This document shows, piece by piece, positions 155 to 23,000 of a DNA stretch of 24,235 nucleotides. Origin of the DNA: Bacteroidota bacterium. GTDB taxonomy: Bacteria; Bacteroidota; Bacteroidia; Bacteroidales; GCA-2748055. Under the pieces are notes generated by a model that had not been told where the DNA came from, searched no databases, and saw only the letters and a list, made by a program, of their open reading frames with translations. Both the position numbers and the translations under genes were made by a program. The stretch spans positions 1-24,235 of the forward strand of contig JAYEOJ010000655.1 in NCBI GenBank assembly GCA_034722835.1, read 5' to 3'. Within the stretch, counting starts at the first letter, position 1; every line of letters begins with the position of its first letter.

Positions 155-211
155 GTGCAAACAATGTCTCATATAGGATATAGATCAATAGATCAACTAT
201 GCATATATTTA
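155..211 (+). promoter_or_regulatory. Putative activator site plus Bacteroidota -33/-7 promoter for the left operon (copy 1 of a shared 57-nt element)
   Basis: GTGCAAACAAT at 155-165, TATAGAT at 179-185 and TATATTTA at 204-211 (one mismatch to TAnnTTTG). It ends 19 nt before the ATG at 231. Spacing is identical to the elements at 17041 and 23000. Confidence 0.6.
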
Positions 212-230
212 TAGAGGTTAAAACCCTGGC

Positions 231-1412
231 ATGAAACATATACTCCTTTGGACCATAATCATCTCTACACTCCTTGTGGCCTGTGAACCGGAAGAAACAT
301 TCACAGTGGCTGCCTATTACTTCCCAAATTACCATGAAGATCAACGAAATGCATCCTATTTTGAGGAGGGATGGACCGAGTGGGAGCTGGTAAAAAAGGC
401 ACAAGCCAGGTTCCCAAACCACCATCAGCCCAACGTTCCTGACTGGGGTTATACCAATGAGGCAGATCCTGTTCAGATGGCTCAGAAAATAAAGGCAGCT
501 GCTGACCACGGTATTGATGTCTTTATATTTGACTGGTACATGTATGAGGATGGGCCTTTTCTAGAGCGGGGCCTGGAAGAGGGATTTTTGAAAGCAGAAA
601 ATTCTGATCTCCTTAAATTCGGGCTGATGTGGGCCAATCACAACTGGGTGGACATTCATCCCTATACACGTGGAACAGAACAGAAGCTGCTTTATCCCGG
701 CATCGTTAGTCCTGAAAGGTTTGATGAGATCTGTGATAAGGTCATTGAGAACTATTTTACCTTACCTAATTACTGGAAGATTGATGGGAAAGCCTATTTT
801 TCGGTATATGATGTGCAAAAATTTGTGGAAGGATTTGGTAGCATGGAATCCACAAAAGCCGCTATGGATCGCATGCGTCAGAAAGCCAGAGCAGCCGGAC
901 TAAAAGGAGTACACTGGAACCTGGTGGCCTGGGGGAATCCAATTCTACCGGTGGAGAAGGCACCCTCCAATACGCCCGGACTCATCGAAATGCTGGGATT
1001 CGATTCAAGCACCTCCTATGTCTGGATTCACCATGTACCCCTTCCTGAAACACAAACCGATTTCAACTATGTCAGGGATGCCTACTTCGAGTACTGGGAT
1101 AAAGCAAAAACAGAATACGGAGTTCCCTATTTTCCAAATGTAACCATGGGTTGGGATCCTACACCCCGTTGCGACCTCGAATCGGAATGGGCTCCTGTGG
1201 GTTATCCCTTTATGAATACGATCGGGAATAATACCCCCGAAAACTTCAGGACCGCCCTCCAAATGGTGAAAGAGAAATTATTGGCAGATCCAAAGGGGAC
1301 GAGAATTATCAATATCAACTGCTGGAATGAATGGACCGAAGGCAGCTACCTGGAGCCGGACACAATTAATGGAATGGCTTACCTTGAGGCCGTAAAGGAA
1401 ATATTTGATTGA
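231..1412 (+). CDS. GH99-like / WbsX-domain putative glycoside hydrolase, lipoprotein
   Basis: 393 aa. Lipobox LLVA-C18. Motifs AAYYFPNYH, HGIDVFIFDWY, MGWDPTPR and C-terminal NCWNEWTEGSYLEPD (NEWxEG) are typical of GH99/GH71-like WbsX-family TIM barrels. Confidence 0.8.
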   Translation: MKHILLWTIIISTLLVACEPEETFTVAAYYFPNYHEDQRNASYFEEGWTEWELVKKAQARFPNHHQPNVPDWGYTNEADPVQMAQKIKAAADHGIDVFIFDWYMYEDGPFLERGLEEGFLKAENSDLLKFGLMWANHNWVDIHPYTRGTEQKLLYPGIVSPERFDEICDKVIENYFTLPNYWKIDGKAYFSVYDVQKFVEGFGSMESTKAAMDRMRQKARAAGLKGVHWNLVAWGNPILPVEKAPSNTPGLIEMLGFDSSTSYVWIHHVPLPETQTDFNYVRDAYFEYWDKAKTEYGVPYFPNVTMGWDPTPRCDLESEWAPVGYPFMNTIGNNTPENFRTALQMVKEKLLADPKGTRIININCWNEWTEGSYLEPDTINGMAYLEAVKEIFD

Positions 1413-1488
1413 ACATGGCGCCATTGTTCCACTTTCTAAAATCTAATCAGTACAATTATAAGTCTTATAAGCAGATACCGTGAAAACC

Positions 1489-20221: not shown

Positions 20222-21739
20222 ATGGTAAATTGGCTTAGATTGCAGAACGGCTCTGATATTCGTGGAGTGGCACTGGAAGGCGTACGGGATGAGAAGGTAA
20301 ACCTGAGCAGCGATGTCGCCATGAAGTTGGGACAGGCATTTGCAGCATGGTTGGAATCAAATGCTCAGGGTTTAAAAAAAGTAGCTGTTGGAACAGACTC
20401 CAGAATATCAGGTAATAAATTGAAACAGGCATTTATCGACGGACTGTTAAATTCTGGTTTTGATGTACTCGATTGTGGACTTGCTTCAACCCCGGCCATG
20501 TTTATGACCACCATTGATCCCGCTCTGAAGGTGGAAGGAGGTGTCATGCTTACTGCAAGTCACCTGCCCTTTAACCGGAACGGTATGAAGTTTTTTACCG
20601 AAAAGGGTGGTTTCGACAAGGGAAATGTATCAGATCTTCTTCAGATCGCTTCTAAGGAAAATTTCATTGTTACCGATTCAAAAGGCAGCGTACAAAAAAT
20701 CGATTTCATCTCTGAATATGCAAATTTCCTTATGAAGACCATTCGTAAAGGAGTAAATGACCCCGATCAATATAACACTCCCCTGGCCGGACTCAAAATC
20801 ATTGTGGATGCAGGCAATGGCGCAGGAGGATTCTTTGCAGGGAAGGTACTTAAACCCCTGGGTGCTGATATTTCGGGAAGTCAGTTCCTGAACCCTGATG
20901 GGCGCTTTCCCAACCATGTGCCCAATCCGGAGGATGCAGAGGCTATGGCTTCCATCTGCGATGCAGTGACCCGGGAACAGGCCGACCTTGGAATTATCTT
21001 TGACACAGATGTGGACCGGGCAGCCATTGTGGATGCTGAGGGAAATGCGATCAACCGTAACAAGCTGATCGCTCTGATCTCATCCGTGATCCTGGAGGAG
21101 CACCCGGGTTCGGTCATCGTCACCGATTCCATCACCTCATCCGGACTCAACTGGTTTATTACCAAACACCTGAAAGGAGTGCACCACCGCTTCAAAAGGG
21201 GCTATAAAAATGTGATCAATGAATCGCTGCGTCTCAATGCAGAGGGTGTGGAATCGTGGCTGGCCATAGAGACCTCGGGCCATGCTGCACTGAAGGAGAA
21301 CCATTTCCTTGATGACGGAGCCTACCTGGTGGCCAAACTTCTGATCCAGATGGCGAAATTGAAACGGAAGGGTCAGACGCTCAGCGGCCTCATAGAAATA
21401 CTGCCCCATCCGCTTGAAGAGGGAGAGTTCAGGCTAGATATACGGACCAAAGAATTCGGGAGTTATGGTAAAGAGGTCCTGAAACAACTGGCCGAATTGA
21501 TCGAAAAGGAAAGGGACTGGTCGACCGAAACGCCAAATCACGAGGGGATCAGAGTAAATTGTACCGGGGAGAACGAAGATGGATGGTTCCTGCTCCGGAT
21601 GTCCCTGCACGATCCGGTCATGCCTCTTAACGTGGAGTCAAATGTTCGCGGAGGTGTCAAAGCAATCGCCAGGCGTCTGCTCAGGCTGCTCAGAACATTT
21701 GAACCTCTTGGACTTGATGCGCTGGATGGAGCCACTTAG
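20222..21739 (+). CDS. Alpha-D-phosphohexomutase (phosphoglucomutase/phosphomannomutase family)
   Basis: 505 aa. N-terminal GSDIRG, phosphoserine loop LTASHLP, metal loop FDTDVDR and sugar-binding region IETSGH. Confidence 0.92.
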   Translation: MVNWLRLQNGSDIRGVALEGVRDEKVNLSSDVAMKLGQAFAAWLESNAQGLKKVAVGTDSRISGNKLKQAFIDGLLNSGFDVLDCGLASTPAMFMTTIDPALKVEGGVMLTASHLPFNRNGMKFFTEKGGFDKGNVSDLLQIASKENFIVTDSKGSVQKIDFISEYANFLMKTIRKGVNDPDQYNTPLAGLKIIVDAGNGAGGFFAGKVLKPLGADISGSQFLNPDGRFPNHVPNPEDAEAMASICDAVTREQADLGIIFDTDVDRAAIVDAEGNAINRNKLIALISSVILEEHPGSVIVTDSITSSGLNWFITKHLKGVHHRFKRGYKNVINESLRLNAEGVESWLAIETSGHAALKENHFLDDGAYLVAKLLIQMAKLKRKGQTLSGLIEILPHPLEEGEFRLDIRTKEFGSYGKEVLKQLAELIEKERDWSTETPNHEGIRVNCTGENEDGWFLLRMSLHDPVMPLNVESNVRGGVKAIARRLLRLLRTFEPLGLDALDGAT

Positions 21740-22902
21740 TAAGCCCCGTACTCATAGGCTGCCTCATACATGGCCAGTATATTTTCAGGAGGCACCCCGG
21801 CCTGGATGTTGTGTACATTGTTAAAGACATAGCCTCCACCCGCTTTGAAAGCCTCCATATTGGCCTGTACATTGGATTTAACCTCCTCCGGGGAAACAAA
21901 GGGCAGAATATGCTGGGAGTCGATCCCTCCTCCCCAGAAAACAAGCTCTTCACCAAAACGCTTTTTCAGGAATTCCGGATCCATGCCCTGTGCCGTGATT
22001 TGTACCGGGTTCAGGATATCGATTCCATTGTCCAGCAAATCAGGAATGTATTCCACCACTGCACCACAGCTATGGTACCAGATTTTGGCATTGGTCAGTG
22101 AACGGATATGCTGAACCAGCTTTTTTTGCCTGGGCTTGACCACCGAACGGTAGAACTCAGGGGGGAAGAGAGGACCATTTTGTCCTGCCAGGTCATCCCC
22201 GATCATCACCACATCGATGATATCGCCTATCTCCTTCATAAAGCCCGTGTAGTACTCGAGCCAGAACTTGAGCACCCTGTCAAGCAGTGCCTCACAAAAT
22301 GAGGGATTCTCCATCATATCCATAAACCATCTTTCAAGTCCCCTCATATACCAGCAGGTCTCATAAACCACCCCTCCAATCCCTGTTGAGACAGCATAGG
22401 GCGTTTTTTTCCGGATATTCAGCACCTCTTCCCTGACACCCTTGAAGCGGGAAGGATCGGCACCATCCGGGAAGGGATATGAATCAATATCTTCCAGGTT
22501 GGCCTCAGCCAAAGGATGGTAACTGATATCCATGTAGAGCTGCTGCTTGTCCGGCATGGACCAGACTACCCCGAACTCATCCCTGAGATCGTGCCAGAGC
22601 TCCCCTTTACGGAAATCCTGCCGGATGGTCCCGTCAAAAGTCTCCGGGCCCTTTGCGGTCACATAACGGAAATCCACCCTGAGCATCTCCAGAATCTCCT
22701 CGCTGGGCCTCACCAGTTGCTGTACGGGATCGAGCATTTCAATCTCTTCCTCCTTTCCCAGGTAGTTGAGCAGCTCTACGTAGGCCCTTTTATGAATCCC
22801 CGATTGAAATCCACCCAGATCGATGGGGACCCGGTCAGGGGTCTCAAAATTTAGGGCTGCAAGAACCCTTTCCCGGGAAGTCATCTGTTTGCTGCTGGCC
22901 AT
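21736..22902 (-). CDS. URO-D/MtaA-CmuA superfamily protein, cytoplasmic, putative methyltransferase-like (copy 2); not HemE
   Basis: 388 aa. Motifs MTSRERV, DRVPIDLGG, IGDDLAGQ, YHSCG (HxC), LNPVQ, FWGGGIDSQHILP and GGYVFNNVHNIQ. No RQAGR motif and no signal peptide. The start could be M7 (22884). Confidence 0.82.
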   Translation of the reverse strand: MASSKQMTSRERVLAALNFETPDRVPIDLGGFQSGIHKRAYVELLNYLGKEEEIEMLDPVQQLVRPSEEILEMLRVDFRYVTAKGPETFDGTIRQDFRKGELWHDLRDEFGVVWSMPDKQQLYMDISYHPLAEANLEDIDSYPFPDGADPSRFKGVREEVLNIRKKTPYAVSTGIGGVVYETCWYMRGLERWFMDMMENPSFCEALLDRVLKFWLEYYTGFMKEIGDIIDVVMIGDDLAGQNGPLFPPEFYRSVVKPRQKKLVQHIRSLTNAKIWYHSCGAVVEYIPDLLDNGIDILNPVQITAQGMDPEFLKKRFGEELVFWGGGIDSQHILPFVSPEEVKSNVQANMEAFKAGGGYVFNNVHNIQAGVPPENILAMYEAAYEYGAY

Positions 22903-22943
22903 CTCCGAACTTGTTTAGGGATACAGTCAAATTAATATCCTTA

Positions 22944-23000
22944 CGAACATATGCATTCATTTTGAGAATATCAATGCATGAAATGATGCAATGTTTGTAT
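22944..23000 (-). promoter_or_regulatory. Putative activator site plus -33/-7 promoter of URO-D-like copy 2 (copy 3 of the shared element)
   Basis: On the minus strand: ATACAAACATT (23000-22990), CATTGAT (22976-22970) and TATGTTCG (22951-22944, one mismatch to TAnnTTTG). Offsets match the elements at 155 and 17041. Confidence 0.6.

Follow-up and report, generated by a model that had tools for sequence, protein, structure and literature searches.

The window analysed here is the whole 24,235-nt stretch of contig JAYEOJ010000655.1 (assembly GCA_034722835.1), from an uncultured marine-sediment Bacteroidales genus. An AraC-family regulator gene lies in it divergent from rhaM and rhaA, together with genes coding for GH78 and GH106 rhamnosidases, a WbsX-like protein and two URO-D/MtaA-like proteins (Table 1). 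The element under study is a 42-nt operator made of two repeats and followed by a -7 box, of which four copies are present in the window and a fifth precedes a rhaT gene on another contig of the same assembly (C316). We argue below that these five operator-promoter units very probably belong to one regulon, the regulator of which would be the AraC-family protein.

Table 1. Genes, operator copies and putative -7 boxes of the window, with the rhaT operator of contig C316. Scores are those of the wide matrix and ranks refer to the genome-wide scan.
Feature	Position	Strand	Remarks
Gene cut by the contig end, first 24 codons (ATG at 72-70)	1-72	-	Probably GH106 alpha-L-rhamnosidase
Putative -7 box TATATTTG	83..90	-	For the leftward GH106 gene; read from sequence, shared register
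Operator copy at 139(-)	106..147	-	Back-to-back with copy 1, sharing base 147; faces the gene starting at 72; score 29.9, rank 4
Operator copy 1 (site 1)	147..188	+	Distal unit TCCAGAAAGTGCAAAC, degenerate proximal unit TCTCATATAGGATATAGA; score 29.4, rank 5
Putative -7 box TATATTTA	204..211	+	For the 231-5915 operon; read from sequence, shared register
Operon: WbsX-like gene, GDSL esterase, GH78 rhamnosidase, GH43/130-like	231-5915	+	Behind operator copy 1
Transcription unit: AraC-family regulator, URO-D/MtaA-like copy 1, three GH106 rhamnosidases	16987-6175	-	
URO-D-like copy 1	14963-16102	-	9-nt gap after the regulator gene
AraC-family regulator gene	16112-16987	-	Cupin/AraC_binding domain and two helix-turn-helix (HTH) motifs; candidate RhaR-like activator
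Operator copy 2 (site 2)	17033..17074	+	Between the AraC gene and rhaM; distal unit CTCATTTTGTGCAAAC, proximal unit GACCAAAATGTCTATTGA; score 44.3, rank 2
Putative -7 box TAATTTTG, perfect TAnnTTTG	17090..17097	+	For rhaM-rhaA-sulfatase-PGM/PMM; sequence and matrix
rhaM, rhaA, sulfatase, PGM/PMM	17115-21739	+	Behind operator copy 2
URO-D-like copy 2	22902-21736	-	Own operator
Putative -7 box TATGTTCG, weakest of the five	22944..22951	-	For URO-D-like copy 2; read from sequence, shared register
Operator copy 3 (site 3)	22967..23008	-	Before URO-D-like copy 2; distal unit TCCAATAAATACAAAC, proximal unit ATCATTTCATGCATTGA; score 34.6, rank 3
GH106/BT4145-like alpha-L-rhamnosidase, C-terminal part with jelly-roll domain	23048-24235	-	Upstream of URO-D-like copy 2
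rhaT operator copy	contig C316:1151	-	Gene start about 123 nt downstream; putative -7 box TATTTTTA; score 46.3, rank 1

A preliminary description of the window had aligned, without gaps, three upstream stretches of 57 nt, and the three strings were found exactly at 155-211(+), 17041-17097(+) and 23000-22944(-). The three-way alignment contains 21 identical columns out of 57, the number previously obtained by hand count, where the base composition predicts 5.0; the pairwise identities are 32, 31 and 27. When three upstream regions of 150 nt were searched in all registers, the best register was that of the preliminary description (21 identical columns), whereas 150 dinucleotide-preserving shuffles of the same regions gave a best identity of 16.0 +/- 1.0 and a maximum of 20. 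The resemblance of the three stretches is confirmed. The consensus deduced from them, RTRCAAACAWT-N4-CA-N7-YATWGAT (without its N18-TAnnTT tail), occurs three times in the 3.3-Mb assembly, each time in one of these stretches, but this count is circular, the pattern having been derived from the same three sequences. Two points of the preliminary description had to be amended: the register of the alignment was correct but the conserved block begins 8 nt further upstream, its yCCA box standing at 147, 17033 and 23008, and the list of three sites, although valid, omitted the copy at 139(-) and the rhaT site.

A wide matrix, trained only on AraC-divergent sites of other genomes, the own sequence being left out, was then used to scan both strands of the assembly (6.57 million positions). 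The five best scores, 46.3, 44.3, 34.6, 29.9 and 29.4, all lie before rhamnose-related genes, and the three sites of the preliminary description are among them (44.3, 34.6 and 29.4). The motif is rare elsewhere in the genome, the next match after 29.4 scoring 16.0. On the reversed, non-complemented genome the maximum was 22.2, followed by 15.2. With a first and narrower matrix, built from the genus only, the four sites of the window occupied ranks 1, 3, 4 and 9. As the assembly is about 81% complete, the resulting regulon list is a lower bound.

The wide consensus reads cCAaaaaGTGcAAAt-N6-cCAatttgt.tATTGat-N18-TA.tTTTG. The self-similarity of the matrix is highest when it is displaced by 21 nt (0.48; other displacements give 0.17-0.41), in agreement with the repeat of about 21 nt proposed in the preliminary description, and the operator can therefore be described as two direct repeats of yCCA-N4-GTGyAww placed 21 bp apart. 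The consensus of the repeat unit is yCCA-N4-GTGCAAA and the proximal repeat ends in ATTGA. The register of the -7 box carries high information in the matrix across 69 sites; at the five sites of this genome, TAnnTT(T/C)(G/A) begins exactly 15 nt after the 42-nt operator, and a TTG (TAG at site 1) is located 20 nt upstream of the -7 box. The Bacteroidota promoter consensus consists of a -33 TTTG and a -7 TAnnTTTG (PMC7366714). The last conserved block thus fits the -7 element, its register being fixed, and the TTG of the -33 element lies within the ATTGA block, as had been assigned; since this TTG stands 20 nt before TAnnTTTG, the proximal repeat occupies the place of the -33 element. Putative boxes of a primary-sigma promoter are present at the five units, with the particularity that the -33 forms part of the proximal repeat of the operator (GTGyATTGA). 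Each operator faces a start codon located 67-123 nt downstream. The ungapped architecture covers five promoters in this genome and about 70 in other genomes.

These promoter elements raise the question of whether the resemblance could come down to a shared housekeeping promoter core (-33 and -7) completed by chance or compositional similarity upstream. Two of the three blocks first recognised as conserved indeed coincide with general elements, common to sigma-A promoters. Nevertheless, the five sites still stand out genome-wide when the matrix is restricted to the operator, without the -7 box. The yCCA and GTGCAAA boxes, which are situated upstream of the -33, are conserved across families and absent from other promoters, and none of the shuffles mentioned above reached the observed identity. 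We consider this explanation barely credible. In a related proposal, GTGCAAA would be merely the -33 element (TTTG on the other strand) of a divergent AraC promoter. It was rejected as a general explanation because in many genera the box is about 10-20 nt from the AraC start codon, which leaves no room for a -7 box, and because non-divergent sites, site 3 for instance, contain it as well.

Conservation was analysed in orthologous promoters. Of 24 genomes sampled in the same genus, 20 have an orthologue of the regulator, which is nearly always transcribed divergently from rhaM, rhaA or rhaT; in 19 of these 20 loci (18 of 19 from other genomes) the intergenic region contains GTGCAA-N9-CA(A)-N7-(C)ATTGA, with TAnnTTT about 19 nt further on. 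Seven close relatives have a nearly identical site 2, which can still be recognised in all the families examined. The motif is also found in other families of the order, in which the regulator is 46-56% identical and divergent from rhaA or rhaT; it was also detected in most of 80 loci from named organisms, namely uncultured Bacteroidales and genomes of the Prolixibacteraceae/Marinilabiliaceae type, including Draconibacterium, Labilibaculum, Saccharicrinis, Mangrovibacterium, Maribellus and Gaoshiqia. The conservation extends beyond the AraC-rha intergenic regions. Orthologues of the WbsX-like gene, 86-93% identical, are preceded by the site, and so is the divergent GH106 gene: the two sites score respectively 25.3 and 24.2 in locus L022, and 25.8 and 26.0 in L024, while L023 has the divergent site only (26.9). 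In the case of URO-D-like copy 2, a site of the same position and orientation (16.7-37.9) is present at six of the ten orthologous loci. Conservation at orthologous promoters, anticipated in the preliminary description, is thus observed at all three kinds of locus.

The attribution of these sites to the adjacent regulator was explored with a degenerate pattern established from the five own sites, YCA-N4-RTRYAA-N9-CA-N8-ATWGA. This pattern gave 2-6 matches in four congeners and none in any reversed control; no match was obtained in five same-order genomes, 97-99% complete, that have no AraC orthologue. In three of the five other-family genomes possessing the orthologue, the sole match of the whole genome directly adjoins the AraC gene. 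In the present assembly the best-scoring site precedes rhaT (342 aa, running off contig C316), and in the relative G018 the operator likewise precedes rhaT and, behind it, a class II aldolase gene (rhaD-like). Together, the pattern, orthologue and rhaT results tie the motif, at the level of the sequence, to this regulator and to rhamnose catabolism. The assignment by gene adjacency being an inference, the motif could be regulatory and yet be bound by some other protein. We regard this as very improbable: across many genera and several families the site adjoins the AraC gene, whichever of rhaM, rhaA or rhaT is the rha neighbour, the sole genome-wide match adjoins it in three genomes, the five genomes lacking the regulator give no match, and a 21-bp direct repeat overlapping the -33/-35 element is the usual layout of AraC-family operators and matches the published RhaR prediction (PMC3870299).

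A number of observations weigh against a single regulon under this regulator. The related genomes are non-independent samples. Four of the ten URO-D-like copy 2 loci have no scoring site: in two of them there is no intergenic gap, the gene directly following another gene, one contains a degraded homologous copy and one contains none. The search for regulator residues co-varying with the operator variant (GTGCAAA versus ATATAAA) yielded one discriminating column, situated outside the recognition helices and confounded with phylogeny, and is uninformative. Finally, sites 1 and 3 score clearly below the rhaM and rhaT sites, the proximal unit of site 1 is degenerate, with ATAGA instead of ATTGA, and site 3 displays ATACAAA instead of GTGCAAA. 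On the strength of such differences, it might be supposed that only the rhaM and rhaT sites (44-46) are functional and that sites 1, 139(-) and 3 (29-35) are weak look-alikes, their genes being controlled by another regulator or by read-through; the latter would be favoured by the lack of a detected terminator between the upstream GH106 gene and URO-D-like copy 2, and the core deviations of the site 1 proximal unit and of the site 3 distal unit point in the same direction. However, all three sites score above both the reversed-genome maximum and the next real match, they are kept in place and orientation at orthologous promoters despite diverged flanks, and they all keep the -7 register. The look-alike explanation therefore appears improbable.

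The most likely explanation remains that the five units form one regulon, with the product of the AraC-family gene at 16112-16987 as its regulator. The co-regulation of the hydrolase operon, rhaM-rhaA and URO-D-like copy 2 suggested in the preliminary description is supported by the conservation of the sites, but the list was too short and should be completed with the GH106 gene behind 139(-) and with rhaT. According to the proposed mechanism, the operator would span about -70 to -30, the proximal repeat adjoining or overlapping the -33 element. Having bound L-rhamnose or a related sugar, the regulator would occupy the two repeats spaced by 21 bp as a dimer and would recruit or contact RNA polymerase at the adjacent -33, so activating transcription of rhaM-rhaA-sulfatase-PGM, rhaT, the WbsX-like/GDSL/GH78 operon, the GH106 gene and URO-D-like copy 2. 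We infer dimer binding and sugar-dependent activation from B. thetaiotaomicron RhaR and from E. coli AraC and RhaS.

The regulator itself has the domain composition expected for such a protein, Pfam matches to PF02311 (E 1e-11), PF12833 (E 3e-20) and PF00165 (E 1e-14) corresponding to a sugar-binding cupin N-terminal domain and a double HTH C-terminal domain. Its start is most likely the TTG codon at 16987 (16985-16987, minus strand), where the alignments of the orthologues begin and at which locus L007 has an ATG; the protein then begins with MEDFFKYLNP. ORF calling also gave a longer frame from 17149, which is an artefact. With the start at 16987, the AraC-rhaM intergenic region measures 127 nt and holds site 2. 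No operator facing the operon of AraC, URO-D-like copy 1 and GH106 genes was detected, the best minus-strand score in that region (10.6) being at background level; autoregulation from the site in the shared 127-nt region is possible. In the congener G011, a pattern match (C2:62754-62790, locus L190) adjoins a second, paralogous AraC gene, 36% identical, and three further matches lie on other contigs, which suggests a larger or duplicated regulon in that genome.

With regard to the other genes, rhaM is frameshifted at 17240-17255: frame 1 is readable up to ...EYSIF, and the rest of the conserved sequence (HEETSILFAFQKQAG...FFME) continues in a different one. By comparison with the relative L006, about 4 nt are missing, and the frameshift reflects either an assembly error or a pseudogene. 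Both URO-D-like copies give weak NCBIfam matches, below cut-off, to the MtaA/CmuA methyltransferase subfamily. The gene interrupted by the left contig end probably encodes a GH106 alpha-L-rhamnosidase, as the gene at the equivalent position is a GH106 in L022 (PF17132, E 8e-62); in L024 it falls below the Pfam cut-off. Contig C316 was considered as a continuation of the right end of the window, but this is not supported, a different gene being found between rhaT and URO-D-like copy 2 in G018. Terminator and sigma-70 promoter scans of the window gave counts not above those of shuffles, with no terminator between genes. The operon limits therefore rest on gene spacing only. Among the sequencing runs searched, no RNA run contained the locus, and the DNA runs that matched shared only small parts of it.

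The system was compared with the known RhaR regulons. In B. thetaiotaomicron, RhaR is BT3768 (Patel et al. 2008), and motif predictions are given by Rodionova et al. 2013 (PMC3870299) and by Ravcheev et al. 2013 (PMC3878776). The operator predicted for the AraC-type Bacteroides RhaR is a direct repeat of 21-bp periodicity (PMC3870299), the B. thetaiotaomicron protein is an activator according to experiments cited in PMC3870299, and its regulon is described as a single operon (PMC3878776). There as here, the regulator is of the AraC family and has rhaA and rhaT as linked genes. Among the matches listed in a large protein search there were close relatives only and no named Bacteroides protein, and the comparison rests on same-order genomes having Bacteroides-like clusters. 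In seven such loci (L160, L165, L171, L175, L179, L181 and L182), AraC homologues 36-41% identical stand beside putative kinase-rhaA-rhaT clusters; in one of the Bacteroides-like loci the genes follow the published order, the regulator coming last. The wide matrix gave no match in the Bacteroides-like kinase-rhaA-rhaT loci. Inspection by eye and with a pattern revealed in them a 21-bp direct repeat of TGTCAwwwT, the first CA of which is 54-55 nt before the TA of the -7 box, the same geometry as in the window. This repeat is probably the Bacteroides-type RhaR operator. The two groups thus differ in the repeat unit, TGTCAwwwT there and yCCA-N4-GTGCAAA here, and in the size of the regulon, the published Bacteroides regulon being one operon whereas at least five promoters are concerned here, including those of GH78 and GH106 rhamnosidases and of WbsX-like and URO-D-like genes. 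The system of the window thus shares the architecture, while its recognition sequence has diverged and its regulon is larger, and we class it as a member of the known Bacteroidales RhaR-type regulon.

Similarities with E. coli RhaS, RhaR and AraC, which represent class II-type activation by dimers of the AraC family, are of a more general nature: a cupin sensor with a double HTH, two half-sites upstream of the promoter, of which the proximal one overlaps the -35/-33 element, target genes of rhamnose catabolism, and a divergent arrangement of regulator and targets. The regulator is not orthologous to these proteins, however, its NCBIfam equivalog scores being 59.2 bits for RhaS (cut-off 288), 39.9 for RhaR (525) and 95 for AraC (208). 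Moreover, the promoters are of the Bacteroidota -33/-7 type, and in E. coli, according to PMC3870299, RhaS and RhaR each have a site composed of 17-bp half-sites in inverted repeat.

The mechanism itself is expected rather than new, and a regulon of this kind is already described in Bacteroides; here it is enlarged to rhamnosidase and URO-D-like genes. The analysis provides a sequence-level regulon for an uncultured sediment Bacteroidales, with one regulator, one operator grammar and five promoters, and it would tie two URO-D/MtaA-like proteins, a WbsX-like lipoprotein, a sulfatase and a PGM/PMM to the use of rhamnose or rhamnosides. The one-operon sugar regulon of related families would thereby be extended to a whole glycan-degradation locus. 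The operator also occurs in cultured genera, among them Draconibacterium and Labilibaculum, which makes the prediction accessible to laboratory tests. More tentatively, and with rather less than even confidence, we propose that in this uncultured marine-sediment genus the regulon has grown from the single rhaT/rhaA promoter of other families to at least five promoters by recruiting the URO-D/MtaA-like and WbsX-like lipoprotein genes, the products of which may act on rhamnose-containing glycans, so that the inducer would report on their substrate. If this were true, a possible role of the recruited genes would be the oxygen-independent removal of O-methyl groups from methyl-rhamnose.

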